Origin: an uncultured beta proteobacterium
GTDB taxonomy: Bacteria > Pseudomonadota > Gammaproteobacteria > Burkholderiales > Gallionellaceae
Direction of reading: 5' to 3'
NCBI GenBank assembly: GCA_963695355.1
Contig: OY968775.1
Span: forward strand, 71,983-135,982
DNA length: 64,000 nucleotides
Positions 44,453 through 61,554 of the stretch are shown one piece after another; position 1 is the stretch's first letter; every line of letters starts with the position of its first letter. The position numbers and the translations under genes were made by a program. The notes beneath the pieces are model-generated. The model was given only the letters and a program-made list of their open reading frames with translations. It did no database searches and was not told the DNA's origin.

Positions 44453-44543
44453 GGAGAGGTGGATGAGCGGTTTAAGTCGCACGCCTGGAAAGCGTGTTTG
44501 GGATAATATCCCAACGGGGGTTCGAATCCCCCCTTCTCCGCCA
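44453..44543 (+). tRNA. tRNA-Ser(GGA), long variable arm, encoded CCA
   Basis: GGAGAGG/CUUCUCC acceptor stem, CACGC-CU GGA AA-GCGUG anticodon arm, GGUUCGAAUCC T-loop, ends GCCA. Confidence 0.98.
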
Positions 44544-44547
44544 TAGA

Positions 44548-44569
44548 CGTTCGGAATTTTGTGATATAA
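44548..44569 (+). repeat. Left sub-terminal inverted repeat
   Basis: cgttcggaattttgtgatataa, exact reverse complement of 60815-60836. Confidence 0.97.
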
Positions 44570-44705
44570 AAGCTCGATTTCGAAAACATTCCGCCCAAGC
44601 CAATCCGCGCCCATCTTGTTGTTAATATAGGGATTATCAGAATATCTTCGCTGGATGCCGTAAATAATTAGATTCTAAAATACCTAAAATTTGGATCTGA
44701 AGCAG

Positions 44706-44789
44706 GCCTAACTTTCATACCCCAATTTCCTGCTGTATTGAATAGCAACTTTTTGGCAGCAATATTTTGCGATTAGCATTCTGTTAGGT
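44706..44789 (+). other. Possible degenerate integron attC site
   Basis: R'' gcctaac (44706-44712), R' gttaggt (44783-44789), internal tgctg/cagca pairing; L boxes poorly matched. Confidence 0.4.
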
Positions 44790-45140
44790 GCCATAAGCAG
44801 AGCTCACATTTCTTTCCAAAAGGAGACATTCGTTCCTGCCCGTACTATCATGTGCGAAGGTGTGTTCGATGATTTTAGTATTCAGTTTGTAGGTGTGCTA
44901 AAAATACTTAACCGATTTAAATGAAAATATAGATTCGGCATGAAGAAGTTTGAAGTTAGTAACCGCTATTTTATCAAGTATTAATTGAAAAATAACATAC
45001 ACCGAGTTCAAACTTCATAGTGCCGAAGCAATAGCTCCCTACACAGCTAATTTATTATCCACCTGTCTTGATAAAAGATTAGGTCTTTTATTGGGGCCTA
45101 TATTCGTTAGGCAGGGCTTCATCGAGAGAGGTATTAAATT

Positions 45141-45644
45141 TTGAGCATGGAAAGTGTTTTATCAATAATTGGTTCAATTGCTTCTATTGGTGGAGCAATT
45201 TGGGCATTTATTGAAGCTAAAAAATCTACGAATGCAGCAACTAAATCAGAACGACTTCGTGATGAACTTATCCATCGAAGAAAAATGGTAGAGGTATCAC
45301 AAGTGCATTCAGAGACAACTAGAGTTTTATCTGTTGTATCCAAAGTTGGGCCTTCTTGTAATGCAAAGCTTCTCAAAGGTGTTAACTGTGCTGATATCGC
45401 AAAAGAGGTAGAGGTATATGCAAGGTTTATCTTAGAACAAAGCGGGCATTTCACTGATTTTTTCGAAAATAAAGCCAAAGAACTTTGTGCTGATTTAAAA
45501 AACGATATTGAAGCTTTGTCCGAAGCTATCAGTTTTGAAGACAAAAAAAATTACGGCAAAAGCATCTACTATAAAATTCAGAATTTTGTGCCCGCAGTTA
45601 AACAGCTCTCAGATGAAAAGAAAGAGCGAGCATTAGAGCTATAA
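45141..45644 (+). CDS. Hypothetical protein with N-terminal TM helix (cassette-borne)
   Basis: 167-aa ORF starting 28 bp after a GTTAGGC core site (45106-45112). Confidence 0.8.
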   Translation: MSMESVLSIIGSIASIGGAIWAFIEAKKSTNAATKSERLRDELIHRRKMVEVSQVHSETTRVLSVVSKVGPSCNAKLLKGVNCADIAKEVEVYARFILEQSGHFTDFFENKAKELCADLKNDIEALSEAISFEDKKNYGKSIYYKIQNFVPAVKQLSDEKKERALEL

Positions 45645-45658
45645 ATTAAGGAGTTATC

Positions 45659-46216
45659 ATGAAATTGACAGATGGTGAAAAGTTAATTGTTCTTATGCTA
45701 AGCGAGCTTTATGAAAAGCTTGGTGTAAATGGCGAAATAGAACCTGATTTCATTAAATCAGCTATTTTTAGCGATCAACTTTGGGGTATAAAATGGAAAT
45801 ATAGTGGTATTCCATTCGAAGAGTCAGAAGACCCAGAAATTGTAAAAGAAGTGGTTGATATTCTCGATATGTGGAGTTTCATTGAACGCGCCTATAGCCA
45901 ATTAAATGAAGAACAAAAGACTAAATTAGAAGCTGATGTTCCCTATTTTGGTCAAGATCCGAAATTTGTCGGTTTCGATGGCAATAATGAATCTGAATAT
46001 ATGGGAACAGCTATGTTTTTAGTAAATGAACTGGAAAGGTTTCAAGAATTTAGTGGCCGCAGCTTCAATTGCCACTCTCAATCAATAGATGGGTATCTCA
46101 GAATGTTGAGCGCATTCGAACCAATTCGTAAAACATTATCAAACAAGCCGTTAAACCTTGAGCAGTTAACTACAATTTTAAAAGAAATAACCCATCCCAG
46201 TAGAAGACAAGCCTAA
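45659..46216 (+). CDS. YfbU-family protein (cassette-borne)
   Basis: MKLTDGEKLIVLML, EVVDILDMW..IE, F.GFDGNNE..Y....FLV....RF, N.HS....Y.RML; stop codon lies inside GCCTAAC. Confidence 0.8.
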   Translation: MKLTDGEKLIVLMLSELYEKLGVNGEIEPDFIKSAIFSDQLWGIKWKYSGIPFEESEDPEIVKEVVDILDMWSFIERAYSQLNEEQKTKLEADVPYFGQDPKFVGFDGNNESEYMGTAMFLVNELERFQEFSGRSFNCHSQSIDGYLRMLSAFEPIRKTLSNKPLNLEQLTTILKEITHPSRRQA

Positions 46217-46250
46217 CAAAGCGTTCGTTCGGATGCTAACTACGCTGCGG
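46211..46250 (+). other. Truncated integron attC site (5' half)
   Basis: gcctaacaaagcgttcgttcggatgctaactacgctgcg: R'' box overlapping the ORF stop and exactly complementary to GTTAGGC at 45106; the 3' half is missing. Confidence 0.7.
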
Positions 46251-46259
46251 TCTGCACTT

Positions 46260-46560
46260 TGGAAACGCTACTGACCGCAATGTGCTGCCATATTTTATCA
46301 ACGTCGCAGGAAAACTGAATGTTTCAGGCTGGGATGCGAAAGAGCGACAATTGAGTTTTTCCAAGAAGTGCCAGGCCATCTGTATGGAACTAAAGTTGGA
46401 CTTCAATCCTTCGGTTGAGCCAAACGCTACCGCCATTCGGCTATTCGATTTGCGCAATGAGCTTGCCCATCCAAAGATGGTCACCGAGTCACTGAACGAA
46501 TTAATATCCCAGCAAGAATATGAGCGCCGACAAACTGAATTGGGGGGGGATAAGCCATCC
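46260..46560 (+). pseudogene. HEPN-like protein fragment
   Basis: YFINVAGK...W...ER.LS...K followed by LRNELAHPK (Rx4H); no intact N-terminus. Confidence 0.5.
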
Positions 46561-46929
46561 ATTGAGGGAACAGCTCACTCCTCTTGCAGTAGATCAGCTT
46601 ATTCAGTCCACCGAGGCTTACCGCTTGATGAAACAGTCGCGATGCTTAACACACACAAACCCAACGAAGAACAATTAAAGATGTTGACGTTAGGAATGGA
46701 AATGTTTGTGGGTGTGCTGGGTAATGTTGTTTCAGGCGTTGGCGAAAATAGGCATTGATACCACCATTATTAAAGGTATTCGATCCAAGTTTTATTAAGT
46801 TTTCAGCAGATTCCGTTTTGCTAATTAATAGCCCAACGTTGTCAAAATTGTCAGCTACAATGCAAAAAATATTGTTCTCAGTAAACTTTTTTTGTATTTC
46901 TTAAGACCTAATACGGCGCAGTTTTAATT

Positions 46930-48756
46930 ATGATCCTTGCCAAAATCCCACCTGTGAAGAGTCCGAGCCTGCCTGGATTCTCTATTGATGCGAACGTCTG
47001 TCTAAACCCTGCCTGCGAAAATTTCGGTGTCTCAGGAGAAGACATCCATCTGCCGGAAATCGGTTATGAATATAAGGACAACGATGAGGTCTTAAGATAC
47101 AAATGTAAGCGCTGCGGCCAATCCCACTCAGCCTTTAGCAATACCAGCGTGTTAGAAACTTTTCATCGCTGTCTTCAGAACTCGATACCCTACGCAAGCT
47201 GCCCAAATCCAGAGTGTAAAAATCATTTTGTAAACCTGTTTGAGCACTACCATGACGACCCGAGAGATAAGCGCGAAAAGCTTTATCGCATAAATGTCTC
47301 TGATGATGCCAAGGAGTATTATCAGGCTCGATGTCGTAGTTGCAATAAAACCTTCACCTTGTCAAAACCACTCCGTCTGCATATCAGTGAACGCAGATTC
47401 TGGCAGAAGGACATGGGTTTCTTCATTAAAGCTATCGTTAACAGCTCCGGGCCATCCATTGTCATGAACCTGGCAGAGGTTCATGGCGATCTCTACTATT
47501 CCCAGCTAACGGCTGCTTCGAATGCGTTACTCAATTACAACAACTTTCATCTCATCAATCTCTTGAAGCCCTCCGTTGCTCCTAAACTAATGCGGATTTA
47601 CACAGACTGTATCGTTTGCAGCATCAAGATGCACCGCAATGACCAAAGAGTTCAACTGATGAAAATCATTGTGTCAACTACTGAACTAGATGGCCGCTCA
47701 CTGATCCTCGCGTTCCACCCTTTGTTCGATCAGCAAGACATTGACGACAACATTATTGCGAACGATCACAAACAGCCATTGGAGCTACGGCGATATGAAT
47801 ATCTGAAACATCCATTCAATACTAAAAGGGATGAGAAGAATCCATTGCCTCCAATCGGGGTCGGTGGATCCTTCATGGAGGATTCATATGCCTACATGGG
47901 ACATTTTTTGGTATTAAGGAAACTTCTTGCCAAGGTAGAGTCATTACAGTTCTATATGGACGGTGAAGCTTCCCTATACAATGCTGCATTGACGGCCTTT
48001 TCCGATCGCATCAAACCCAATCACAACAAATCCAAAAGAAGTAGCTGTGATATCGTCGTGAAGGTATTGGAGAAAGATAAAAAAGCAACCCAAAATTACT
48101 CTCAGGTGAGGGACCAGGCTAGAAAATCCTTTCGAAAAGTCCATGCCGATTCGAAGCCGCCCGATGCCTCTCAATTACGCCGATTTTTATTGAGCGAAGA
48201 GATGCAACGGGTGAATGAGTCCATCAAAAATAGCAACACCAATAAGAGCAGAAAATTATTTACAGAACCACTCTCCAGAATTTACACAGTAGCAACCAGC
48301 AGGGCCAACACGACCGGTAAAGATTTTTGGGTAACCGACCTACTTAATGGTAAATCAAACCCGCCAGCCAGAATTTTGTGGTTAACCCGAACGACCGAAC
48401 ATGCAAATACAGACCATGAGCTCGACTTGTATCACAACTGTTCGCTCTTTTACATTGATAGTATATTTGGAGCCTTCCGACAGCGCTCCTCGTTGGTAGC
48501 TCGGCCTCAATTAACGGCATCAGGCCAAAGGAGCTATAACAGCAATCCCGAGTTACCTATCAATCTGATCCAGGATTTCACCATCAACGTAGCGTACTGG
48601 AATTTCTTCCTGAAATATCGAAGTGTGCCGAAAGAAACCATTGCCTATGTGCATGGCCTAGTCAAAAAGAAAGAATCTCCGGAGTTCAAAGTGGCTTTCC
48701 AGACCAGATATACCTTTGATAATGCGAAAAGGATAACCAAATGGCTTGGTATTTGA
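46930..48756 (+). CDS. Large multi-Zn-ribbon RNase-H-fold transposase-like protein, paralogue A
   Basis: CLNPAC/CKRC and CPNPEC/CRSC Zn ribbons, helical HTH-like segment, acidic motifs IYTD, FYMDGE, YIDSIF, and C-terminal VAYWNF...TIAYVHGL, all collinear with paralogue B. Confidence 0.7.
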   Translation: MILAKIPPVKSPSLPGFSIDANVCLNPACENFGVSGEDIHLPEIGYEYKDNDEVLRYKCKRCGQSHSAFSNTSVLETFHRCLQNSIPYASCPNPECKNHFVNLFEHYHDDPRDKREKLYRINVSDDAKEYYQARCRSCNKTFTLSKPLRLHISERRFWQKDMGFFIKAIVNSSGPSIVMNLAEVHGDLYYSQLTAASNALLNYNNFHLINLLKPSVAPKLMRIYTDCIVCSIKMHRNDQRVQLMKIIVSTTELDGRSLILAFHPLFDQQDIDDNIIANDHKQPLELRRYEYLKHPFNTKRDEKNPLPPIGVGGSFMEDSYAYMGHFLVLRKLLAKVESLQFYMDGEASLYNAALTAFSDRIKPNHNKSKRSSCDIVVKVLEKDKKATQNYSQVRDQARKSFRKVHADSKPPDASQLRRFLLSEEMQRVNESIKNSNTNKSRKLFTEPLSRIYTVATSRANTTGKDFWVTDLLNGKSNPPARILWLTRTTEHANTDHELDLYHNCSLFYIDSIFGAFRQRSSLVARPQLTASGQRSYNSNPELPINLIQDFTINVAYWNFFLKYRSVPKETIAYVHGLVKKKESPEFKVAFQTRYTFDNAKRITKWLGI

Positions 48757-49526
48757 GCGAGGTCGTCACCGATCTCTCCCCTGTCGTGGAGATCCTCAAG
48801 CTATACGATCAGACCACCGGATCATTCCCCGATGAAGAAAATAACGATGATTACAAAAAACGCCTAGTCCCGTTATTACGCCAGGCCACGTTTAATACCG
48901 ACCACATTGAAGCCGATAGCATCCCGGCAGCCTATGAGAATGATGAGTACAAATGGCTGGCATCCGGCTACCACGACCTTATCCGCAAACTGGGGCTTGT
49001 TAAGCTTAGCGTCGATAAGCTTGAGCGTGAGCATGGGTACTCTTTAGAACTGACAGAAGCAGGAAGACAGGTTCTCAACCAGCAGCTCACCTTATCCGAA
49101 CTCATGAAGGCCGGGTTGCCTGAATGGAGAAACGATGCCGGAATCCACCCCTATCCGATCATCCTAAAGCTCTTGTCGAATTTAAAACAGAGCAATCTTT
49201 ACCCTTGTGGTGGCCTGTTGCTGCTGGAGGTAATGATCGTTTTATTGAAGCTCAACCAACCGCATGGACACATTATCAATCTCTATGACCATATCCAGGA
49301 ATATAGAAAAGGGTTTTATCCTTACATGACTGGTGAGGTTCAAGTCGATCTGATCAACTATTCAGGTTTACTCTGGGAGAAGCTGAGCCAGGACTTATCC
49401 AACTACCATGCTGCCAATTACCCGGCTCGGGCAACATTGCAACTGATGATGTACGCGGGCGATTTAGCCTATGGCCCGGTACCCGATGAGATCTTTGGTC
49501 AGGTTCAGTACGTCACCATCGCCTAA
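48741..49526 (+). CDS. Putative AlwI-family restriction-endonuclease-like DNA-recognition (winged-helix) subunit
   Basis: LIRKLGLV...LELTEAGRQVL and IHPY.IILKLL.NL...LLLLEV resemble the AlwI-family N-terminal domain; overlaps paralogue A by 16 bp. Confidence 0.5.
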   Translation: MAWYLSEVVTDLSPVVEILKLYDQTTGSFPDEENNDDYKKRLVPLLRQATFNTDHIEADSIPAAYENDEYKWLASGYHDLIRKLGLVKLSVDKLEREHGYSLELTEAGRQVLNQQLTLSELMKAGLPEWRNDAGIHPYPIILKLLSNLKQSNLYPCGGLLLLEVMIVLLKLNQPHGHIINLYDHIQEYRKGFYPYMTGEVQVDLINYSGLLWEKLSQDLSNYHAANYPARATLQLMMYAGDLAYGPVPDEIFGQVQYVTIA

Positions 49527-49541
49527 TACGAGTCATTCATC

Positions 49542-50390
49542 ATGGTTGAAAACAACAAAACCATCGCCATCGGTACAGATAAAGATCCCTATAAGGTACC
49601 GCTGAACCTAAAACAGTTGTCGATATATATGCAATACATTATTCCGAATTCAAAGCGTGAAATGAAAGATATATTCGGTAAATTTGATCTCGATTCAGCT
49701 TCACGCAGAAAACAGCTGAACACCATCGACTTTAAAACCGATGCGGGTGAACGCATGACATTGCAGAAAATCAACAAAGGGCTCACGATGGAATTGTTCG
49801 CTAGCGGAATGTTCAGCTACTTCGATCATCCCTCAGAAGTGCATTCAAACTGTGTCGCAAATCGATATCACCCTCAAGGTGCAGTTGATAAGAACCAATA
49901 CCAAGTAGTGCCAAAAAATTATGCACCAGGGGGTATGCCGGATGTGCAGATTGACTATACGAATTTCATGGTGATGTTAGAGGTCAGTGCCAAGGAGAAG
50001 CCAACCTTAGGAGATTTGAGTAAACAATTTAACGGTGCATTAAAGCACGCACGCACAATCCGCGAAGATGGATATGATAAGCCTATCTATTGCCTAGTGA
50101 TCCACGAGCGCTCTTTGATGGAAACGAAAAATAAAACCGCGCTGAAAGAAGTCCTGGAAGTGATCAATCCATCAGAGCAGATCTATATCACCGCGATATC
50201 GATATTGGAATTTGCGGGTTTGGGGCAAGTGATGGCAGATACATACGAGAATGCCATTTCCATAATACAGAACGACAATTTACTTAGTGTCCTCAAGGCA
50301 ACCGTTGAAAAGGGTGTTGAGGGTAAGTTTCATGACGAATTCGTTAAATGCCTGAAAGACCTTAAACCCAAAGCTGCTCATGAATGGTGA
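49542..50390 (+). CDS. PD-(D/E)XK nuclease, AlwI/FokI-like catalytic subunit
   Basis: PKNYAPGGMPDVQI..Y...MLEVS...KH...YCLVI matches the AlwI-family pattern APGG.PD...EV; no methyltransferase nearby. Confidence 0.6.
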   Translation: MVENNKTIAIGTDKDPYKVPLNLKQLSIYMQYIIPNSKREMKDIFGKFDLDSASRRKQLNTIDFKTDAGERMTLQKINKGLTMELFASGMFSYFDHPSEVHSNCVANRYHPQGAVDKNQYQVVPKNYAPGGMPDVQIDYTNFMVMLEVSAKEKPTLGDLSKQFNGALKHARTIREDGYDKPIYCLVIHERSLMETKNKTALKEVLEVINPSEQIYITAISILEFAGLGQVMADTYENAISIIQNDNLLSVLKATVEKGVEGKFHDEFVKCLKDLKPKAAHEW

Positions 50391-50419
50391 CTTTGGAAGT
50401 TTGTGTGTGGATGTGACTG

Positions 50420-50748
50420 GAAGCATATTCCACTCGTTTTGAGATTTTCGACAGATTTTCGGCCTTAGCTGACGTGACTGGCTGGCTCATGTAGGTGTAA
50501 AGACAGCCTACATCACACCTGGCAGTCCATGGGAGAACGGTGACTGTGAAAGCTTCAACGGCACATTGCGTAATGAGTTGCTTGATGGAGATATCTTCTA
50601 TGGTGTCAAAGAAGCGCAGGTGTTGGTTGATCAGTGGGTCAGGCATTACAACACCACCAGGCCGCACAGTTCGTTGGGTTACAAGCCTCCTGCGCCAGAG
50701 GCTATCATCAACATGAACATACAAAATTTACACTCGGTGATGCACTGA
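50420..50748 (+). pseudogene. IS3-family transposase 3' remnant
   Basis: GVKTAYITPGSPWENGDCESFNGTLRNELLD...W..HYNT.RPHSSLGY.PP. Confidence 0.9.
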
Positions 50749-50905
50749 AGTATGATACAAATACTCTCACTTCAAGTGGTACTAAATTTGACGCAGTTCA
50801 TGACTTCAGCAACGAGCACCACCATGTCCGCAAAGCATAACGTAACTCTGTCAGGGGTTGGCAACCGTACCTTCGGGCGAAAGGTGTGAATGCAGGACTT
50901 AACGC

Positions 50906-53083
50906 CTACGTCGATAAATACAATCGCCACTGTTGAATTACTGATGCGGTCACTGCATCGCTCAACCATACTGCTTGTTGAAGAATTTTAGTATTCTCAT
51001 CATTGGGTAACTTTGGATTACATAATTGCTTGCACATATCCAGCAAGTTTTTATAGGGTATCGGACTTTTGCTGAATAGCGTGTTATGTCGATACAACCC
51101 TAACTCTTTTAACTGAGTGTTGAGAAGGGCTGCATAGATGTATTTTGAATAGCTTAAATTCAGCTCCATATTGACGTATTCACGAAACACGTCTGCCTCA
51201 ACGATGACATTTTCTACATTTAAAATCTCACGAATAACCTGCATGACGGCATCTGTGTCGATATTGCTAAAGGCTTTTTCAGTTGTGGTGTAAACCATTT
51301 TATCAACGCGAACCACTTTGCCTTCTTGCATCAAATTGCTGATATAAAATCCGGCATGACCTAAACTTTTGCTTTTCAATCGCTCAGCTATTTCCTGCTT
51401 AGTCATGGCTACTGTGGATTCATTAAGCACTTTTATGATGACATCGGCTTGGGTGATACGTTTTGAATCTGGATCAAGGCTTATGCTATCCGAACCTGAT
51501 TTGCCATCAAAGTAAAGTCCGTAATCTTCGCCATACTCTCTGACAAGATGGCGCAAAGTGAAGTACTCTATTTCGCTGCGTTGCCCTTTGGTTTGATAGT
51601 AATAGTCGTGCAAATGCGAAGCTGTTATTTGTTTTCGCTTAAAGTAATCAATCAGATGTTGCATGATTTCAGGGATGTCAAACTGCTCAAGGTCAAGAAA
51701 TATCAGATTTCGATAAGTTCCTTTGCCGCATAAATAAATATATTCGGAATCATTGAACCCATGAGTTGATCTAGTCTCATCTATTTGTGTTGATGCGCAC
51801 CCTTTTACATTTACTATTTTGGCAATATCTTTCCATGGCAATCCTTCGGGATGAGAAGTTAAGATATGAGCCACGGCCTTGCCTCTAGCAAGTTTCATTG
51901 GATAAATGCCTTGTTCAGTTACTTTAATGTTATGGGATTTCTCTAATTGGTTTATGCCGTGTATTGCTGATGCCTTGTCGTACCCATAATTCGACATCAA
52001 TTCATTGATGATAATTTCTTCGGCGACAGGGGAAGGCATAGAGCAGAACAGCGAGTCTATAATTTCAGTATGAATCTTGGTGAAAATTATCTTGCTAATG
52101 CTGCCTGTTTCAACTTGGCAACATAATTCAATAAGAGCGTAGAACAGCTTCTCTGTGGCAAAACATTTGGCTAATTTAGGCAATAACACCGTTAAATCTT
52201 CAATCATTCTTGCACGGATATTTGCCCATAATATTTTGGGTGGTATCGTCAAACGAAAAGGAAGATTGGCATTGATAGGCTGCTCAATTTGGCGTATCCG
52301 CTCTCTGGTTAGTGGCTTACCCTCGGTATTTTTATATCGACCTGCAACTTCCTCAAGCGTTTCATGTTGGTGATTGAATCCCCAGCGCGAAAGCGCAATA
52401 TCCGTTTTCATTTCATCCAATGTCCATAAATAGCTTTCAATGTCTTCAATGAGTACGTTATCTATCTCTTTAAATTCAATTAAGTTTAATGAGGTAAATT
52501 TTTCCGACTGCTCAAATAAAAGGTTGGGCAATTGTTTTTGCAATTTAATTAAACTTAAAGCATACAACTTGCCCACAGAAGGTAATTCAGCAAAGTGAGA
52601 CGAATCGAGATTAATGAGGTCTTGAACCGTGACTAAGTCGCCCACTGAAGCAGAAATTTTTCTTATGAGTTCTTGATATTGTGTTGGGAATACCACTTGC
52701 GCCAGATGAGTTTCTAGTTGTGCTAGTGAAAGTGTAATTTGAGGGGGTAATTCAAACGCGGCAGGCATCGTGCTTAAAGCATTTTCCTTGATATCAGAAC
52801 CTGGTTTGACTGTTGAGGCATTCATGTCAAGTGACAAGCCAATCTTGCCAAGACAGAGCTCGATTTCCCGCAGCGACTTAAGGCCTAAATTCTGGGCTTG
52901 CAGCAAACTATTTCTAGTGCATTGAACCAGATCTCGGATGTAATGAATATTTTGTTTCTTGAGGCAATTGTATGGGCGCGGTGGGAGATTCAGATTCTCA
53001 ATGGGGCGCTGAAAAATTGCGTCATTCTTACTAGATAAAAGCACTTGTCCATATTCCGAAGTATCCATTTCATTCATTTTCAT
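50906..53083 (-). CDS. RNAP alpha-CTD / sigma70 region-4 / multi-wHTH protein
   Basis: IENLNLPPRPYNCLKKQNIHYIRDLV...NLGLKSLREI (alpha-CTD), a second degenerate copy, and TLEEVAG...TRERIRQIE (sigma70 r4 HTH). Confidence 0.8.
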   Translation of the reverse strand: MKMNEMDTSEYGQVLLSSKNDAIFQRPIENLNLPPRPYNCLKKQNIHYIRDLVQCTRNSLLQAQNLGLKSLREIELCLGKIGLSLDMNASTVKPGSDIKENALSTMPAAFELPPQITLSLAQLETHLAQVVFPTQYQELIRKISASVGDLVTVQDLINLDSSHFAELPSVGKLYALSLIKLQKQLPNLLFEQSEKFTSLNLIEFKEIDNVLIEDIESYLWTLDEMKTDIALSRWGFNHQHETLEEVAGRYKNTEGKPLTRERIRQIEQPINANLPFRLTIPPKILWANIRARMIEDLTVLLPKLAKCFATEKLFYALIELCCQVETGSISKIIFTKIHTEIIDSLFCSMPSPVAEEIIINELMSNYGYDKASAIHGINQLEKSHNIKVTEQGIYPMKLARGKAVAHILTSHPEGLPWKDIAKIVNVKGCASTQIDETRSTHGFNDSEYIYLCGKGTYRNLIFLDLEQFDIPEIMQHLIDYFKRKQITASHLHDYYYQTKGQRSEIEYFTLRHLVREYGEDYGLYFDGKSGSDSISLDPDSKRITQADVIIKVLNESTVAMTKQEIAERLKSKSLGHAGFYISNLMQEGKVVRVDKMVYTTTEKAFSNIDTDAVMQVIREILNVENVIVEADVFREYVNMELNLSYSKYIYAALLNTQLKELGLYRHNTLFSKSPIPYKNLLDMCKQLCNPKLPNDENTKILQQAVWLSDAVTASVIQQWRLYLST

Positions 53084-55395
53084 TGTCCTGAATTATTTCT
53101 GTTCTTTTGCAGACAACTGAGAAAACGAAATTCTGAACTAAATACACGTTTAATTTCTGCTCTACCTTCGGCGGGTAGTTTTAATAAATCCTGCCTCGTC
53201 TTAATAATATTCAGATACTTTTCAATGAGCAAGGACTCTTCATTAATTTCGGCAATTTTTGAGATATTTGTCGGCGATACCTCAAGGGGTGCTGTGATGG
53301 CTTGTTGATTTAATTGAACGGAATTTATGGATAAAAAATTTCCTAATTCACTTTCATTACCCAACAAAAACTCGACCTCGGCTTCCGAGCAAGCAAGCAA
53401 ACCGTTATGTTGCTTAGCAAGGCTAATCGCTCTAAAACTTGGGCAGATGCGATTTTTTTGATAAAAGTTCTGCGCGTAATCCAAGCATATTTTACGAAAC
53501 ATACCTTGATCGTATTGCCCAATTAATGCGGCTTCCAGATAGCCAAAATACGAGTCAAAATGCGTAGCGATTTGGTCGGCAGTAACATCAGTCGAAATAC
53601 TTTCGATTTCATTCAGTTTGGGGATATGGTTGTTGTCCTCATAGTATCTTCGCAGCACCTCAATCACCTGCATTCGTGACTTCAAGCGATATTGCAGCTC
53701 TTCAATAAGTTGCAAAACTTGCGCGGCAGATTGGCTATAGCTCACTTCCAACGAAGAGTTATGCACGGTTTCCTTTTTATCGCGTGGCTCCCAATTTTCT
53801 TTTTCAATGGGTACGCGATTTACTCTTTTGCTGAGTTGGTGTACTTCGTTTAGCCGTTCCAATGAACCCACAAAATCTAATACATGAACGTAATCTTTGT
53901 TGGGTGTTTTGCGCAGTCCTCTGCCTAGTTGTTGCAGCCAGATCGTATGCGACCCCGTGTAACGCATAAAAACTAGCAGATTAGTTTCTGGAATATCAAT
54001 GCCTTCGTTGAATAAATCTCGTACCAAAATGTAACGATAATTCCCCTCACGGAAATCACGGATATTTTGCCAGCGTTGTGAATCACTCATTTGAGAATGT
54101 ACAAAGGTCGCGCTGCCTGGCGGGAAAAACTGAATCAGGTAAGTAATGTGTTGAATATTGCGGCAAAAGACAATCCCCTTGAGATTGCAGATTTGTTTTT
54201 CTTGTACGGTTTTTTCTATGATGCGGACAACTTCTTCGTCCTTTTTATGCAAGAACAGACGTTGGTCTAAATCGCTAATCGACATGCCATGATTCAGTTG
54301 GTCTATACGCGATTGATCCAAGTCATCAAGCAAAACCAAATACTTTGGAAATGCCAGTTTGTTATGACGCAATGCCCAAGCTAAATCATACTTGCCCACA
54401 TGACCTGCCGCACCACCAAAAAATGCTAGTACGTCTTTGTTATCCTCACGAAACGGTGTTGCGGTCAGGCCTATCAATAATTTTGGATGAAAATGCTCGA
54501 CGACTGTGGCATAAGTTCTGGCTGGGGTGTGATGAGCTTCATCAACCACTATCACGTCAAAAGTTTCCTTTTCCAGCGTGGCGATTTTGCTAAATAGCGT
54601 ATCGAAACTGCCAAACACAAAATCAGTTTGCTCTGGGTTTGCACCATCAAAACAGGCCGAAAATGAGTAAGTGCCAATACCCAAAACGTTTTTGAAGGCA
54701 GTAACCGATTGCAACAGTATTTCGACCTGATGCGCCAAGAACAGCACACGCTTAACTTTGCCCTGTTGCAATATCTGTTTTAGCAAATGGGCAACGGTAT
54801 AGGTTTTACCTAACCCTGTTGCCATTTCTATTAACAAACGATTATGCCCTGCATTAAAGCGCGTCAAGCTGTCCTGAATAACGGTTTCTTGGTATGTTCT
54901 GGGCTTGATATCCCGTCCGATTTCTGATTGCTTCTCAATCCACAAATTCTGCAAACTGTCACGATCAAGTAGCTCAACTCCAAGTCTTAACGCTCTTACT
55001 TTCACCTCGGAAGTAAAATAAGAATTTGTCACTAAAATCATGTTGACGACATTAGCGAGCTTTGCGCCCGTGACCAATTGATTTAATGCGCTTACGTCAA
55101 CTGTATCTCCGGCTTGCCTTTGCTTGACTTCAATCGCAAATTTTCGTTTGCTTTTATAGGCGAAAATATCAACACCACCATCACCATGCTTAAACTCCTT
55201 CCCTACTTTGGTAATAATTGCATCGCTCCAGCCAGCAGCCACAAAAACATCCCGGACGTAAATTTCAAAATCGGATGGAGATAGTTTATCTATCAGTTTG
55301 AATTCTGATAAAGCGGCTTTGTTCAGTGGCGGGCAAACACGATTTGTGTTGACATGATGTTTTCCACCGCCGACTTGTTTTTTGCCTGTTTTCAT
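53080..55395 (-). CDS. Mrr-family endonuclease fused to SF2 (ResIII/DEAH) helicase
   Basis: DFE.YV..VF...GDGGVD...IEVKQ...VTNS.FT (Mrr_cat); MATGLGKT, VDEAHH, GLTATP, FNEGIDIP, QQLGRGLR. Confidence 0.88.
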   Translation of the reverse strand: MKTGKKQVGGGKHHVNTNRVCPPLNKAALSEFKLIDKLSPSDFEIYVRDVFVAAGWSDAIITKVGKEFKHGDGGVDIFAYKSKRKFAIEVKQRQAGDTVDVSALNQLVTGAKLANVVNMILVTNSYFTSEVKVRALRLGVELLDRDSLQNLWIEKQSEIGRDIKPRTYQETVIQDSLTRFNAGHNRLLIEMATGLGKTYTVAHLLKQILQQGKVKRVLFLAHQVEILLQSVTAFKNVLGIGTYSFSACFDGANPEQTDFVFGSFDTLFSKIATLEKETFDVIVVDEAHHTPARTYATVVEHFHPKLLIGLTATPFREDNKDVLAFFGGAAGHVGKYDLAWALRHNKLAFPKYLVLLDDLDQSRIDQLNHGMSISDLDQRLFLHKKDEEVVRIIEKTVQEKQICNLKGIVFCRNIQHITYLIQFFPPGSATFVHSQMSDSQRWQNIRDFREGNYRYILVRDLFNEGIDIPETNLLVFMRYTGSHTIWLQQLGRGLRKTPNKDYVHVLDFVGSLERLNEVHQLSKRVNRVPIEKENWEPRDKKETVHNSSLEVSYSQSAAQVLQLIEELQYRLKSRMQVIEVLRRYYEDNNHIPKLNEIESISTDVTADQIATHFDSYFGYLEAALIGQYDQGMFRKICLDYAQNFYQKNRICPSFRAISLAKQHNGLLACSEAEVEFLLGNESELGNFLSINSVQLNQQAITAPLEVSPTNISKIAEINEESLLIEKYLNIIKTRQDLLKLPAEGRAEIKRVFSSEFRFLSCLQKNRNNSGQ

Positions 55396-55955
55396 TATTT
55401 CAGTGAAGAAGATGAAGTTGTAAAATTGAAAGCAAGTCTATAGCACTAGTGATATAGGTGTCGATAATTAGTGGCTTCACATATTGCAATCGATTCCTTC
55501 CATCTGCACAGGTTGCGGAGCGTTTAGTTGTTCGACATCGCAGCTAACACGTGAAAGTCATCCCACTCTCCTATCGAATGCATCTTATTCGCACTAATGG
55601 CATCTTTCAGGATGACTTGCTACAAGGGTCGACAATCCGCCAGTAGGTCGGGTGGCGAGCCTCTCCATTATCAGTTATTCCTCAAGCTGATTAAACTGCT
55701 TCAAAAATAATTCAATGACTACTTTGTAGAAGGGAGTATGAGCAAGCCTACAGCACTACAGCAATATATAAATGTCATTTACGGAACTTCAACTTGTTAT
55801 TTCATTTATTTTACGGCACGATTCTGTGATGAGAACGATTTTTCTATATTGTCATCAGTGAAAGAAATACGTAATGGTAAATTTCACCCCACCTACGGAA
55901 ATTGACGCTTCACAGCATAACTGCCTGCGCCCCTCACTTCAAAGTTAAATCCCAG

Positions 55956-56780
55956 ATGGCGATCCACCAACTCGATCTATTAGAGAATGCACTCGACAGC
56001 CTAGCTGAAGCACTGGCGAAGTTCGAAGAGGGCGATGCGGGAGAATCAAAGGCATACAAGTTCGCCATTTTACATATGGCGCACTTTATTGAACTTATTT
56101 TCAAACATCACATAGCACAAAAGCATCCGCTATTGATTTACAAGGATCCATTCGCGCAAAAGGTCGATAAGAACAAAACCATTACCCTTTGGGATGCGGT
56201 GAATTTTATCAACAACGAGGCGACAGACACAGTTTCTGCTGAGTTTCGTACCAACTTGGAATGGCTGAAGCGACTAAGAAACGAAATCGAACACCACAAA
56301 TTCACAATGGATGTGCCACAGGTGCGCATCACGTTGGGAAGACTGTTCCGATCAGTGCTTGAATTTCTTGAAAACTATAGCGGTGTTGAGATCGAATCTC
56401 ATATTCCCGACAACACAATGGATTCTTTCAAGGTGCTTTCTGACGAGTATGAGTTCCGACGACGCGATGCCATCCGTAAAGCAGAAGAAGTCGAAAAAGC
56501 AAACACATCAGACCACACTTCGGGCGAAGACGAGTCACCTGTGAGGCTTGATTGTCCCAATTGTGAGAACCCAACTCTGGTTATCAATGATGACTCTGAT
56601 ACGGGCTATCGTTGCACATTCTGCGAGAACGAAGATAGTGACGAGTTGCCCGCATGGTGCGACATTTGTAGCGTCCAAACCATCCATGGTGAACTCGTAT
56701 TTTGGGAAAGCGAGGCTGGTCAAACTGAAGGCCGCTGCTATTACTGCTCAGGTAGATACCGTGCTGAAAAAGATGACTAA
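55956..56780 (+). CDS. HEPN-like protein with C-terminal Zn ribbons
   Basis: AILHMAHFIELIFKH, LRNEIEHH (Rx4H), CPNC/CTFC/CDIC/CYYC; likely ATG at 55956. Confidence 0.65.
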   Translation: MAIHQLDLLENALDSLAEALAKFEEGDAGESKAYKFAILHMAHFIELIFKHHIAQKHPLLIYKDPFAQKVDKNKTITLWDAVNFINNEATDTVSAEFRTNLEWLKRLRNEIEHHKFTMDVPQVRITLGRLFRSVLEFLENYSGVEIESHIPDNTMDSFKVLSDEYEFRRRDAIRKAEEVEKANTSDHTSGEDESPVRLDCPNCENPTLVINDDSDTGYRCTFCENEDSDELPAWCDICSVQTIHGELVFWESEAGQTEGRCYYCSGRYRAEKDD

Positions 56781-56863
56781 ACTTTGGTCTAGCATGGTAT
56801 GTGCGAAAAGTCGCGCAGGCATGGTTGATTCTAAAGCCAGATTTCATAACATGAGCTGAGCTA

Positions 56864-57769
56864 ATGATTACAGAAAAATTGTATATTATTGGAAACGGTT
56901 TCGACATTTATCACGGGATACCATCGCGGTATACGGACTTTCGAACATATCTTGAACAGAGCGACCGGTCACTTTGTCAGAAGCTTGAGAACTACTTCAG
57001 TTACGAAGGATTATGGGCGGACTTTGAACAATCGCTGGCTGATTTCGATGCTGACAGATTGATTGAGGATGCGTCAAATTTTCTTGTTTCCTATGGGTCA
57101 GACGATTGGAGCGATTCATATCACCATGATTTTCAGTATGAGATTAATGAAGTGGTTGTCGCTTTATCACAGACATTGAAATTAAAGTTTGCGGAGTGGA
57201 TTGCACAACTACCAATCCCATCCGAGTTGGATATTAAAAATAAAAAGCTCGGTTGCATTGACAAAAATTCGACATTTTTGTCGTTCAACTATACAAACAC
57301 CCTTCAGGCAGCCTACTTAGTTTCAGACAGCCATGTGCTTCATATTCACATGAAATATCTAGTAAATGGCCCAGATTTAGTGCTGGGGCACGCTTGGAAG
57401 CCGGTCAAAAGAAATGCGTTAATGCATCAAGATGATCTTGAGCGGCAAGATGTCCGCATTGCCGAAGGCGACAAGATAATTGATAGATACTTCAAGACAA
57501 CCTACAAGCCAACGGAAGAAATTATAAAATTAAATGGCGAATACTTTGCGAGCTTGCGCCGAACAAAAGAAATTTATGTACTTGGGCACTCGATGTCGTG
57601 CGTTGACATTCCATACTTTCAAGAGATTGTGAGATCAATTGATGCGCGAAACACGAAGTGGTACATAAGCTACTTTGATGAGAAAGAGTTAGCAAGTCAT
57701 CAAGGAGCAATGAATGCCCTTGGCATTAGAGCAGAGTTGATAAATTTTTCTGACTTAAAGAGTATTTGA
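56864..57769 (+). CDS. abiH: AbiH-family (SIR2-like) abortive infection protein
   Basis: LYIIGNGFDIYHG..SRY.DF, FLSFNYT.TL, HIH...LGH, YVLGHSM..VD..YF. Confidence 0.85.
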   Translation: MITEKLYIIGNGFDIYHGIPSRYTDFRTYLEQSDRSLCQKLENYFSYEGLWADFEQSLADFDADRLIEDASNFLVSYGSDDWSDSYHHDFQYEINEVVVALSQTLKLKFAEWIAQLPIPSELDIKNKKLGCIDKNSTFLSFNYTNTLQAAYLVSDSHVLHIHMKYLVNGPDLVLGHAWKPVKRNALMHQDDLERQDVRIAEGDKIIDRYFKTTYKPTEEIIKLNGEYFASLRRTKEIYVLGHSMSCVDIPYFQEIVRSIDARNTKWYISYFDEKELASHQGAMNALGIRAELINFSDLKSI

Positions 57770-58040
57770 GTGAGTGTCTAAAGCGGGGAAAAGGTGTGTG
57801 ATTGGTTTTTATAAAGAAAATAGCCAGCCCGCAATTATACTGCCAGCTTTCCAGCTAAATAATTTTAGAGCAGTGAAGTGGGCAACTGCACTAATGAAGG
57901 CGATTGAGGACGCAAACGCAAAATGATAGATAGCGACTTCTGGGTTGCGCACATTGTCCAGCATTGAACAAAGAGGCCTTTGATAAAAACTCTGAATATA
58001 GGAGAATGAGGAATTGGCGAATAGCAACAAACATTAATTA

Positions 58041-58577
58041 ATGATAGCTTGGGAAGCATTTAAATATCGGGGAGTCGAGTACGATTTAACTCATCTTCAC
58101 CCATGCCGTCTCCAGTATATTCAATCGGAAAAATCTGGTCAGCCAGAAAGAAGATATATCGTTGAAGTCTGCTACAGCTTGCACTGCTTTACAAAAACAT
58201 TTTCAACCGCAGCAGACCCACATCTTAACTATAGTGATGCAAGAGAGACTCGAACTTTTGATCTTGAAAGATACGAATTATCTAAACAACTACCGCAAAT
58301 CATCCAAGACCTGAGTTCTAAAAGATGTATGCATACGGGAAAGGGAAATTTCTTTGTGGTTGAAGTTGTTACTTCAAGCGGTGCTAAAGAAGATTACGAG
58401 GTGTATTTTGATGTCCAGAATTCAAGTGCCAAGGGAATGATTGCACGCCTCTTTGTACAAAGTGCTTATGTCAGAGATGAAAAGCATATCAACAGATTAG
58501 CCGCCACCAAAAAAATATCGCTGTTTGTGATTCTGAATAATAAGCAAACAGGAAAGCCGATTAAAATGCCGCAGTAG
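58041..58577 (+). CDS. Hypothetical protein, putative RNase toxin (BECR-like, tentative)
   Basis: 178-aa ORF with YDLTHLHP, HCFT, R.FD.ERYELSKQLP and RLFVQSAY; faces a convergent structured RNA. Confidence 0.6.
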   Translation: MIAWEAFKYRGVEYDLTHLHPCRLQYIQSEKSGQPERRYIVEVCYSLHCFTKTFSTAADPHLNYSDARETRTFDLERYELSKQLPQIIQDLSSKRCMHTGKGNFFVVEVVTSSGAKEDYEVYFDVQNSSAKGMIARLFVQSAYVRDEKHINRLAATKKISLFVILNNKQTGKPIKMPQ

Positions 58578-58579
58578 AA

Positions 58580-58710
58580 ACGGTTAAGGCTCCTTACGGA
58601 GCCTTAACTTTGATACTAACCGAACCTCTTAGAATATCTGCACTTGGGCGGAAACCATTTCTGGCGGGATCACTGCACGGCTTTCACCGCATTCGGTTTA
58701 TACAATGACA
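58580..58710 (-). ncRNA. Putative ~130-nt structured RNA (candidate RNA antitoxin)
   Basis: Enclosing stem AACCGAA/UUCGGUU, hairpins GCGGU-GAAA-GCCGU and CCA-GAAA-UGG, upstream sigma70 promoter, downstream terminator. Confidence 0.6.
58583..58608. terminator. Hairpin terminator shared by the convergent ORF and RNA
   Basis: Perfect 11-bp stem gttaaggctcc-ttac-ggagccttaac with short T/A tracts on both sides. Confidence 0.8.
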
Positions 58711-58715
58711 TGGGC

Positions 58716-58744
58716 AATATATTCCTAAATGACGAACCCGTCAA
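58716..58744 (-). promoter_or_regulatory. Sigma70 promoter driving the putative RNA
   Basis: Minus strand TTGACG (58744-58739), 17-bp spacer, TATATT (58721-58716); no ORF follows before the terminator. Confidence 0.7.
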
Positions 58745-58856
58745 TATCTATTCCGCCATCACAATCTGACCGTACCGTCGTGTGAATTGACTGTTGTTGG
58801 CGACGATTGGAGGGTAATCTCAAGCGTGTTGGCACCCTTAGTACGCTTGACCGCAG

Positions 58857-60737
58857 TTATAAGCGCATTCCTTTCCTACGTTTTCTGGGTGCTCTCGGTA
58901 TCTTCTGTCCGGGCCACAACACATCATCGTAATGCAAAGGTTTATTAGTTAGCCCAAGCCGCATAGCTGGCGTCATTTTGTCATCATCACTGATCTTGAT
59001 GAAATTATGATAAACCCGAAGCAGACTCAGATATTGCTCCACCATCTTTGGATTGTAGGGTGCGTAACCGTGCCAGACCGTGTTGTAGCCGCTTGAAGTG
59101 CCAATCGGGCGCTCAAATGCATTTATCAATCGCCTCGAAATTTGAAAAATATTATCCACGGCATTGATGCCTGCATCGAGGTACATCTGTGCCCTGGTCA
59201 AATCGTCATAGTCATTGTCGCTTCGCTCAGTTAACCAGCATATAGCTTTATCCGGTTCGTTCATTGACGGAAGAGGATGGGTCACCCATTTATCCTTCCA
59301 TTTACCAATGTTCGCTGCCCCTACTATGTTGTCGTGCATCAACCATAATTTAGCCTGATCCCGTTTGTTTGCGGGTAAATTGGACGAGTAGTCTGACAGG
59401 ATCTGTTGTGCCTTTTCACACCGACCCTCTTTATCTGGAGTGGTCAGGAATTTCGAATAGCGAACATAGAAACCGTGGGCTTGACCAGATTTGATTTCTT
59501 TTTCAAATGCCGAGATAAATCCGGCCCTGAGCATGGAATCGCAATCCATGTAATAGAATAATTTCTCTACCCCTGCCCCCTTGACCAGCATATGCATCAT
59601 TTGAAAATGGGCATAGCTGGTATACGGCACATGAACTTGCATGCCTTTGGTCAAGATGGGATTGCAGTAATCCAAATCCATATTTTGTTGCTCACGATTC
59701 TCAACATCCTTGCGAGATTGTGCTGCAACATAAACATCATTGATCTGTTGCAAGATATCCTGAGCCTTTGTTAAACCGAGTCGCTGACCAAGCTTGCGGC
59801 CAGCCAGAAACTCATCACAAGTCATCCAATATTGTGCGTGCTGTCTAAATGCTTCCGGTCTCAACGCGTCACCGTTCATCGAGGCTTCTTTGTTGATCGT
59901 GTAGGAATCGGCATCCTTATCGTAGTTTGCACACATGCCAAGGATAAAGCGGCTATCCTGATCAACCGTACACACAGTTGAAAATTCAGCGTTACGCCGA
60001 TCATGCTTATTAGTCCAGTTGAGTTGATACTCCTGGACATCGACTGATAGCCTGAGGGTTTTGGGAAGCAATATCTCACCATTGATCATACGTCGGTCAA
60101 ACAATCCTGATAATTGGTTGCAGCGACGATGGACAAAATCGAGTAAAGAGTAATAGTTTTCATTGCTTTGGATAGACATCCCCCTGATAGCGCATCGAAC
60201 TGGGGATTTGTTGGCGACACGGCTGAATAAATCCGATGCCATATGCCTGTTCTTTGGATGAATACGAACTGGTTGTGAAGCCAACATCCGTTTCTTGCAA
60301 GCCTTGCATACATATAGCTGCTCTCCGGTGACCGAGTGAACCCCTGCCCTACTGTAAAGCTCAGGATACTCACCAACAGTACATCCGCAATTCGGACATC
60401 CAACCGTCTTGCACGCGAGTAATTCGGTCGTCGTAAGCACTGAATGGGTGATGCGCTCAAATTCAGCGGATATACCGGTATTGGATTTGATTGGAATCTT
60501 CTCGTTGCATGACTTACACAGGATGGCCGGAATACGACCTTCTGATGTGTTTGTTACTTTGTAATGAGTATCGCGATCGGGGCTCGGGCCAGGTTTACCA
60601 GGCTGTTCTCTGGCAGGGATACCAAAGTTATCACATTGAGGGTTTTTGCAAAAATTGACCTGCAGTGGCATGGCCGGACTGGCCCCCAATTTCAGTTGGG
60701 AGGTCGGCGGAATACGAAAATTTGTTGGCTGAACCAT
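58857..60737 (-). CDS. Large multi-Zn-ribbon RNase-H-fold transposase-like protein, paralogue B
   Basis: NFCKNPQC/CKSC and CKTVGC/CKAC Zn ribbons, HTH-like segment, LSVD, YYMDCD, NAVDNIF..SRR, VYHNF...MTPAMRLGL (IS1-like tail); starts 77 bp inside the right IR. Confidence 0.75.
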   Translation of the reverse strand: MVQPTNFRIPPTSQLKLGASPAMPLQVNFCKNPQCDNFGIPAREQPGKPGPSPDRDTHYKVTNTSEGRIPAILCKSCNEKIPIKSNTGISAEFERITHSVLTTTELLACKTVGCPNCGCTVGEYPELYSRAGVHSVTGEQLYVCKACKKRMLASQPVRIHPKNRHMASDLFSRVANKSPVRCAIRGMSIQSNENYYSLLDFVHRRCNQLSGLFDRRMINGEILLPKTLRLSVDVQEYQLNWTNKHDRRNAEFSTVCTVDQDSRFILGMCANYDKDADSYTINKEASMNGDALRPEAFRQHAQYWMTCDEFLAGRKLGQRLGLTKAQDILQQINDVYVAAQSRKDVENREQQNMDLDYCNPILTKGMQVHVPYTSYAHFQMMHMLVKGAGVEKLFYYMDCDSMLRAGFISAFEKEIKSGQAHGFYVRYSKFLTTPDKEGRCEKAQQILSDYSSNLPANKRDQAKLWLMHDNIVGAANIGKWKDKWVTHPLPSMNEPDKAICWLTERSDNDYDDLTRAQMYLDAGINAVDNIFQISRRLINAFERPIGTSSGYNTVWHGYAPYNPKMVEQYLSLLRVYHNFIKISDDDKMTPAMRLGLTNKPLHYDDVLWPGQKIPRAPRKRRKGMRL

Positions 60738-60814
60738 AATTATCTCGACTTTTCACATTTAAGTGGAAATATTAAAAGCATGTAACATACTGCTTGCTTT
60801 ACATATTTTAGTCA

Positions 60815-60836
60815 TTATATCACAAAATTCCGAACG
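60815..60836 (-). repeat. Right sub-terminal inverted repeat
   Basis: ttatatcacaaaattccgaacg, followed by ggtag and the ttctccgcca duplicate. Confidence 0.97.
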
Positions 60837-60851
60837 GGTAGTTCTCCGCCA

Positions 60852-61189: not shown

Positions 61190-61400
61190 TCGTACAAGAT
61201 TGCGATGCCGTTGTTTGACTGTCCAACTATATCCGATGGCGGATCGTCGTTCTCGAATATTATGACTTGAGCAGCTTGGAATTCCTCCGCTATAGACCGA
61301 TAGAATGTATCTTTTACATCATGCGAGAAGCCGCCTTTGTCCATATCAGGTTCGCGATAGACCACGAGCGAAGAATCAATCAACACAACTAGCCATTCGA
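61190..61400 (-). pseudogene. C-terminal remnant of an SMC-like/ABC three-component ATPase
   Basis: VVLIDSSLVVYREPD...VKDTFY..IA...QVIIFEN..PP (Walker B/D-loop and final strand pattern). Confidence 0.45.
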
Positions 61401-61431
61401 CTATTGATCCGGCACGAATTGAACTTGATAA

Positions 61432-61497
61432 CCGTTCGTGCTGAGCCTGTCGAAGCACAAGAATCCACTTACATTTCGACAGGCTCAATGCGAACGG
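61432..61497. repeat. REP-like palindromic element
   Basis: ccgttcgtgctgagcctgtcgaa ... ttcgacaggctcaatgcgaacgg inverted pair. Confidence 0.88.
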
Positions 61498-61554
61498 ATT
61501 CGCGGATAAACGGCACCGAAGCAATAAGTCCGCAAGCGGGCAAGTCGCTGGTTA

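Follow-up and report, generated by a model that had tools for sequence, protein, structure and literature searches.

The window analysed here, a 64,000-nt stretch of contig OY968775.1 (positions 71,983 to 135,982; assembly GCA_963695355.1) from an uncultured beta proteobacterium of the Gallionellaceae, contains an element of 16.3 kb with terminal inverted repeats (TIRs) at its two ends, and close to the left end of this element stand three genes, ORF1 to ORF3, which we refer to as the trio. An earlier note on this DNA had described a transposase-like gene (paralogue A, here ORF1) coupled to a split, methylase-less nuclease (ORF2 and ORF3). We find that the trio is a conserved part of the core of a transposon family, probably a transposition module, and that its last two genes are predicted to encode the recognition and cleavage halves of an AlwI-type enzyme. 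The three genes are:

46930-48756, plus strand: ORF1, paralogue A, 608 aa
48741-49526, plus strand: ORF2, 261 aa
49542-50390, plus strand: ORF3, 282 aa

These positions, the 16-bp overlap of ORF1 with ORF2 and the 15-bp gap between ORF2 and ORF3 agree with that note, and an AGGA lies 7-10 nt before the ORF2 ATG. The suggestion that the genes form one operon is borne out by their translational coupling, which recurs in relatives, the first gene after A overlapping it there by 4-19 bp; a scan for terminator-like sites, which is weak evidence, found none on the plus strand within the trio. None of the three ORFs matched a Pfam or NCBIfam model.

The element that houses the trio extends from about 44544 to 60841, directly after the CCA of a tRNA-Ser gene, and its ends are defined by the following features:

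44453-44543, plus strand: tRNA-Ser(GGA) gene, the insertion target (ARAGORN)
44534-44543: left target-site duplication, TTCTCCGCC(A), the last 10 bp of the tRNA gene, repeated at 60842-60851
44544-44569, plus strand: left TIR, TAGA followed by a perfect 22-nt arm, CGTTCGGAATTTTGTGATATAA (arm at 44548-44569)
58857-60737, minus strand: paralogue B, transposase-like, 626 aa, pointing inward from the right end
60815-60841, minus strand: right TIR, a perfect 22-nt arm (60815-60836) and GGTAG
60842-60851: right target-site duplication, TTCTCCGCCA

The TIR arms are complementary at 22/22 positions and occur only in these two copies in the 3.14-Mb genome; by our own estimate, such an inverted-repeat pair has a chance expectation of ~1e-5 in 18 kb. 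Empty sites, retrieved from three congeners (L073, L078 and L079) using the tRNA gene as query, read ...TTCTCCGCCA|AATCAATG and match the window's right flank, AATCAATC. Together, the TIRs, the repeated tRNA end and the congener empty sites indicate that the element spanning 44544-60841 was inserted after the CCA with a duplication of 9-10 bp, the two lengths being indistinguishable because the element's first base equals the next base of the target.

The families of A, ORF2 and ORF3 have similarly small memberships (32, 47 and 48 clusters, respectively), share contigs and are syntenic at every locus examined; the co-occurrence that the earlier note had proposed to test is strict. Two genes of ORF2 and ORF3 size follow A at every locus with an intact A gene (L001/L002, L003/L004, L005, L080/L081, L082, G380, G336 and L031, the last with one fused gene), and the second gene is demonstrably ORF3-like. 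Homologues of A did not turn out to be usually without these neighbours, which are kept at 15 loci with intact A, down to 25% identity; at one further locus, L029, the A gene is frameshifted and ORF2 and ORF3 are still present. Among 400 sampled genomes of the class, strong ORF3 matches (>=72 bits) were confined to genomes that also carry A (G000, G380, G336 and G231). Three weak ORF3 matches in the same sample were open frames of 601-613 aa, and both of the two that we examined proved to be single-chain RE_AlwI enzymes. This census covers tens of loci out of the ~650 clusters of the superfamily to which A and B belong. One further ORF with an ORF3-like match, in L047, also carries a DDE_3 (IS630-type) domain and was probably disrupted by another insertion element.

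The association includes paralogue B. The trio and B recur together even where the A proteins of the elements share no more than 25% identity, and B accompanies the trio wherever the far end of the element was reached: in the window, G380, G336, L080, L031, L001 (as L083) and L003 (as L084), the right ends of the last two having been reached by walking along contigs. There, a 625-aa gene convergent at the right end and followed by the TIR and TTCTCCGCCA is 76-79% identical to B, which makes B the most conserved of the core genes in these loci, as compared with 61-67% for A, 61-66% for ORF2 and 53-61% for ORF3. The similarity of the middle gene is harder to follow: hhalign gave no significant alignment between the ORF2 family and the genes at the equivalent position in G380, G336 and L031, and its homology across deep clades is consequently suggested by position, size and coupling only.

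Insertion at tRNA-Ser genes is a shared property of most of these elements. The junction TCTCCGCCA|TAG is identical at eight independent tRNA-Ser loci (the window and seven others), with the anticodons GGA, GCT and CGA represented, and the same end of the element always faces the tRNA gene. Four trio elements lie away from a tRNA-Ser end: that of G336, which is flanked by a 9-bp duplication, CAACAGGTA, and those of L005, L031 and L082; in L082 we did not find recognisable TIRs, and B was not within reach. At two tRNA-linked loci (G380, L024:2790-3030; and L083:15260-15440), the right TIR and the duplicated (C/T)TCTCCGCCA are directly followed by another left-end TIR and ~230 bp of sequence from the left end; here, the duplicated tRNA end has been re-used as a target, producing tandem arrays or their remnants.

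Similarity to a restriction enzyme is most evident for ORF3. A profile of 31 ORF3 homologues matched the cleavage domain of the nickase N.BspD6I (E = 1.4e-4), and a broader profile, to which deep relatives had been added, matched residues 385-588 of N.BspD6I in the PDB (E = 3.3e-9, 39.6 bits). The alignment spans nearly all of ORF3, includes the residue equivalent to N.BspD6I E418 and the PD...E..K core, and scores lower with the E418A mutant chain. ORF3 residues E84, P133-D134, E147-V148-S149 and K151 are invariant or nearly so, with the motif invariant across 13 diverse members. The window's own ORF3 falls below the threshold of the Pfam model RE_AlwI (PF09491), giving no match at E < 0.1, and the assignment thus rests on the profile and on the relatives, of which the G336 homologue passes the model (25.9 bits; cut-off 23.1) and that of L080 reaches 18.8 bits. 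By these alignments, ORF3 is homologous to that cleavage domain over its whole length and is predicted to be an AlwI-family PD-(D/E)xK cleavage domain.

For ORF2, which had no sequence-level match in family or sequence searches, the similarity appears at the level of predicted structure. Its AlphaFold (AF2) model is of high quality (predicted local distance difference test score, pLDDT, 87; predicted template modelling score, pTM, 0.84), and the best PDB match found by Foldseek was Nt.BspD6I (E = 9e-4, probability 1.00, TMq 0.55), with the BpuJI recognition domain also among the best matches (probability 0.98-1.00, TM ~0.47-0.50). The modelled winged-helix subdomains resemble the recognition part of AlwI- and BpuJI-type enzymes, so that ORF2 is the predicted DNA-recognition half of such an enzyme. 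Taken together, the two proteins would have the domain layout of N.BspD6I, a type IIS nickase, with recognition and cleavage placed on two chains, and the invariance of the catalytic residues points to a catalytically intact, methylase-less split nuclease. The fold match of ORF2, the profile match of ORF3 and the distant homologue above the Pfam cut-off thus bear out the earlier suggestion that the two ORFs resemble the halves of an AlwI-family enzyme.

The earlier note had also raised the case of an ordinary restriction enzyme split by a frameshift, with homologues that lie next to methyltransferase genes. ORF lengths of ~257 and ~283 aa are kept without internal stops in ~50 clusters at 50-88% identity, and the split form also occurs in two further deep clades, so the split is not a recent frameshift; this conservation of the two-ORF form effectively rules out a frameshifted ordinary enzyme. 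A fused form exists as a single 565-aa gene downstream of A in L031, a Pseudomonadales metagenome-assembled genome, with the ORF3-like part beginning at residue 299. Another variant, P0075 (241 aa, on a Logan contig of 8.5 kb), combines a match to the first third of ORF2 with one to the C-terminal 59% of ORF3, and represents the split nuclease after internal deletion or fusion.

As that note had stated, the element contains no methyltransferase: none of the 13 ORFs of >=100 aa between the inverted repeats matched a methyltransferase family, and no such gene was conserved near the trio in relatives. The two single-chain RE_AlwI genes examined among the weak ORF3 matches, L089 (in G301, 609 aa) and L090 (in G070, 602 aa), both of the same class, served as a control. 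Each lies between two methyltransferases, one of the D12 class and one N6_N4, and these methyltransferase-flanked enzymes are only distant relatives of ORF3.

Paralogues A and B are 22-25% identical to each other and belong to a superfamily of ~648 clusters (at 50% identity), for which no match exceeded the cut-off of a Pfam or NCBIfam model and nothing significant was obtained in the PDB. Paralogue A combines two CxxC...CxxC zinc ribbons and a helical region with a predicted RNase H-like core, and an alignment of 97 superfamily members, both paralogues among them, shows the two zinc ribbons as well as four residues (D226, D344, D510 and R517 in A numbering) that are 91-98% conserved. In the AF2 model of A, which is of moderate quality (pLDDT 70), the core has a beta1-3/alpha/beta4/alpha topology, with D226 on beta1, D344 after beta4, D510 at the start of a helix and R517 seven residues further on. 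Foldseek comparison of this model with PDB and viral structures returned nothing significant (the top match was Tn5 transposase, E = 0.4, with a weak enrichment of RNase H-fold transposases), and an ORF1 profile gave only noise against PDB sequences. The assignment to the RNase H fold with an Asp-Asp-Asp (D-D-D) triad is accordingly based on topology and conserved residues, and the layout of the modelled triad is suggestive of that of RNase H-fold transposases.

Distant relatives of B matched the IS1 model NF033558 in their N-terminal zinc-ribbon/helix-turn-helix region only (E ~1e-6, 26-28 bits; cut-off 100); A and B themselves matched neither NF033558 nor an IS1 transposase. One of these distant relatives is a 650-aa 'insertion element protein' encoded beside dfrG on the Enterococcus faecium plasmid pAT44-a (L058; 173419-175371), a protein type also found on ~100 other Firmicutes plasmids; its C-terminal half is 25% identical to B, and its IS1-like zinc ribbon scores below threshold.

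A scan of the genome collection returned mostly B-type proteins, and among these we delineated nine elements of 1.9-11 kb that carry B and none of A, ORF2 and ORF3 (L033, L035, L039, L041, L044, L045, L046, L053 and L057). Their TIRs, (C)TAG[G/C]CGTT...AAAGTGTTGAA, are of the same type as those of the trio elements, the window's included. B-only elements sit in the loop or stem of terminator-like hairpins, such that an A-run and one GC stem arm precede the element and the second GC stem arm and a T-run follow it; their target duplications are ~7-9 bp, and none of the nine is near a tRNA gene. The existence of nine TIR-bounded elements with B alone identifies B as a working insertion-sequence (IS) transposase. 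The genes A, ORF2 and ORF3 are thereby an add-on of larger, cargo-carrying, mostly tRNA-Ser-specific elements, and the B-only relatives apparently constitute an undescribed IS or transposon family.

We consider it likely that the trio acts in transposition. In the mechanism that we propose, it would form the accessory half of a four-gene machine, made up of A, ORF2, ORF3 and B, that moves the 16.3-kb element. B, and probably also A, would bind to the TIRs common to both and use the D-D-D triad to cleave the 3' ends and transfer the strands, while ORF2, in a complex with A, would tether the ORF3 cleavage domain to a specific sequence. ORF3 would then make the strand cut that the transposase leaves, at a fixed distance as type IIS enzymes do and most likely on the non-transferred strand at the element ends. 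Such a cut would correspond to the job of TnsA in Tn7, so that a large element with its cargo would move by clean cut-and-paste. If the nuclease is confined to the transpososome and, as is probable, behaves as a nickase, this would explain how it is tolerated without a methylase. That the nuclease makes a TnsA-like end cut together with A is, by analogy with Tn7, the reading that we prefer, at somewhat less than even odds.

Several observations weigh against this mechanism. B-only elements move without such a nuclease, which is hence not needed for the basic chemistry, and elements that have gained the module also have a changed target, a correlation that fits a targeting role at least as well. 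A nuclease recruited by a transposase would, moreover, have no obvious need of its own sequence reader. ORF2 similarity is undetectable between the deep clades, and the ORF1 model is moderate with no significant Foldseek match. TnsA-like end cutting and tRNA-Ser targeting are not mutually exclusive, and the Tn7/TnsA-like and tRNA-targeting functions that the earlier note had raised would both fit the comparative data.

The trio may instead select the target, redirecting a B-type transposase from terminator hairpins to the 3' end of tRNA-Ser genes, with ORF2 reading the target and ORF3 nicking or marking it, in analogy to TnsD/TniQ or the CRISPR effectors of CRISPR-associated transposons. We regard this as possible, if less probable than not. 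It would account for the contrast between the nine B-only elements in terminator-like hairpins, none of them near a tRNA gene, and the eight independent A-containing elements that share one tRNA-Ser junction over three anticodon types in a fixed orientation, and it would give ORF2 a role suited to its sequence-specific reader fold. More speculatively, the T-loop has a GAATC, which resembles the AlwI-family sites GGATC and GAGTC and is situated 5 nt before the 9-10 bp that are duplicated, a spacing like that of type IIS enzymes; GAATC is, however, present in most tRNAs, and the duplicated 10 bp are re-used as a target without the rest of the tRNA. The trio elements of G336, L005, L031 and L082 are not at tRNA-Ser genes, and binding alone would not require invariant catalytic residues in ORF3 and A. 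Finally, the window and G380 share their target, yet their ORF2 proteins cannot be aligned and their TIRs differ, a combination that fits recognition of the element ends better than targeting.

Three other explanations appear less likely. A retention or homing nuclease, in which ORF2 and ORF3 cut the empty target or the donor site after excision and repair from the sister copy restores or spreads the element, is a role that has been proposed for TnpB and IscB in IS200/605 elements; it would suit a site-specific, methylase-less nuclease strictly linked to a site-specific mobile element, as well as the tandem re-use of the duplicated target, by which the site stays recognisable. We consider it unlikely, as it is not obvious how self-cutting would be avoided at an occupied site, where the tRNA gene is still intact and the 10 bp are present twice, and as such a role leaves unexplained why translation of the nuclease is so tightly coupled to that of a transposase paralogue with its catalytic residues intact. 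Still less probable is a defence or addiction system borne as cargo, composed of a methylase-less restriction-like nuclease and a domesticated transposase, which the earlier note had offered as its alternative. The trio does lie within an island full of defence genes, and ORF3 has weak PADLOC matches (HEC-02B, E = 2e-4; 'Type II nicking endonuclease', REase_II, E = 3e-3). These matches are sub-significant and reflect a shared nuclease fold, and PADLOC returned no significant system match for the trio (none for ORF2, and only E = 0.018 for ORF1). The trio is also constant while the cargo changes, stands at the end of TIR- and duplication-bounded elements beside the TIR, and occurs only inside such elements; A is a paralogue of the element's own transposase, and both paralogues keep the triad. 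Decay of a frameshifted type IIS restriction gene that lost its methylase is exceedingly improbable: the fused 565-aa form does indicate that the split arose from, or gave rise to, a single chain, but the two-ORF form has a constant length and invariant catalytic residues across the clusters and both deep clades described above, and RE_AlwI genes with methylases are related to it only distantly.

The proposed system shares several features with Tn7 (TnsA and TnsB, TnsC, TnsD), in which the 5' ends of the transposon are cut by TnsA, a nuclease with a restriction-endonuclease fold. In both, such a nuclease is genetically coupled to a transposase, core genes lie near an end, and the cargo is variable and often defensive. 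Both also insert in one orientation at a specific site just downstream of a conserved gene, which is not inactivated; this resemblance is functional only. Unlike in Tn7, the core genes have no match to an rve/Mu-type TnsB, Tn7_Tnp_TnsA_N, an AAA+ TnsC or TniQ/TnsD in Pfam and NCBIfam; the duplication is 9-10 bp and not 5 bp; and there are two transposase-like paralogues and an AlwI-type nuclease with a separate predicted DNA-recognition subunit, TnsA having no DNA reader of its own.

Among nucleases, the closest parallels are N.BspD6I and the heterodimeric R.BspD6I (PDB 2ewf, 5liq, 6qnz and 2p14 for the two) and Nt.BstNBI, ORF3 corresponding to the whole cleavage domain and the modelled fold of ORF2 to the recognition domain. 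N.BspD6I is a monomeric nickase that requires a second catalytic subunit for double-strand cleavage, and R.BspD6I is a natural case of the AlwI family working as separate subunits and as a nickase. R.BspD6I consists of a full nickase and a catalytic-only small subunit, whereas here recognition and cleavage would be on separate chains. Ordinary AlwI enzymes differ further, being single chains of ~600 aa between two methyltransferases; the genes described here are embedded in a transposon and translationally coupled to a transposase paralogue. As in the BpuJI recognition domain (PDB 2vla and 5hnh), ORF2 is predicted to have two winged-helix subdomains; the identity is only 11-12%, and BpuJI is a single-chain enzyme with a different nuclease domain. 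The paralogues, in turn, resemble the IS1 family in their N-terminal zinc ribbon and helical DNA-binding region, TIRs and ~9-bp duplication, but they are ~600 aa long as compared with ~230 aa, carry a pair of zinc ribbons and contain a large insertion ahead of the third catalytic residue; none of the matches extends to the catalytic part, and all scores fall well short of the cut-off of the model.

We found no description of an AlwI-type nuclease coupled to a transposase, or of this element family, in the literature and family libraries searched (AlwI with transposon, DUF6399, terminator-targeting IS). The comparison suggests that a complete type IIS-like enzyme, its reader and cutter being separate subunits and a methylase being absent, was independently acquired by an unrelated transposase superfamily, which retained it across deep divergence beside a second transposase paralogue with an intact triad. 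A nuclease of restriction type that lacks a methylase may be tolerable as part of a transpososome. Should the module determine the target or the mode of cleavage, it would represent a new case of restriction-enzyme domestication and a compact, RNA-free route to site-specific DNA insertion. A more specific version, which we put forward tentatively and think doubtful, is a protein-only insertion system in which the ORF2 reader and the ORF3 cutter, with A, steer a B-type transposase to one phosphodiester at the tRNA-Ser end; were it true, this would be an RNA-free counterpart of CRISPR-associated transposons, whose target could be changed by swapping the reader subunit. The elements carry anti-phage genes between bacteria while inserting at one exact tRNA-Ser position, which would explain an 'integrase-less' class of tRNA-linked defence islands.

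The remaining genes of the element in the window fall into two groups:

45141-46758, plus strand: passenger ORFs between the left TIR and ORF1 (167 aa; YfbU-like, 185 aa; 158 aa)
50906-58577: variable cargo, encoding an RNAP-alphaCTD/sigma-r4 protein, a Mrr-nuclease-helicase (type IV restriction-like), PDC-S64/DUF3644, AbiH and YjaZ

The passenger ORFs are not found in relatives, where ORF1 begins ~180 bp from the TIR, and they are a secondary insertion at the element's end. Conservation ends at the ORF3 stop codon, where the cargo starts, and relatives hold different defence genes at this position. A 14-nt repeat-like sequence at 50392-50405, considered as an internal element end, was rejected, as it is not conserved in relatives. 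Outside the element, a query with the window's right flank met only a dispersed repeat of ~130 bp (61400-61530), which has at least 10 further copies in the genome as well as copies in the congeners and looks like a MITE/REP-like (miniature inverted-repeat transposable element or repetitive extragenic palindrome) dispersed repeat.

Two short sequence likenesses were observed at the ends of the element. The right TIR and duplication (60826-60851) read TTCCGAA-N7-TTCTCCGCCA, and the tRNA gene from T-loop to CCA (44517-44543) reads TTCGAA-N7-TTCTCCGCCA; this likeness could explain the re-use of the duplicated site, or be a coincidence. At the left end, both deep clades retain a TTAGA(A/T)TC motif upstream of A (window, 44665-44675; L003:9950-9965; the G380/G012 left ends). 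The motif includes GAATC, the sequence that also stands in the tRNA T-loop, 5 nt ahead of the duplicated bases, and may be a promoter element or a site for the nuclease or its reader.

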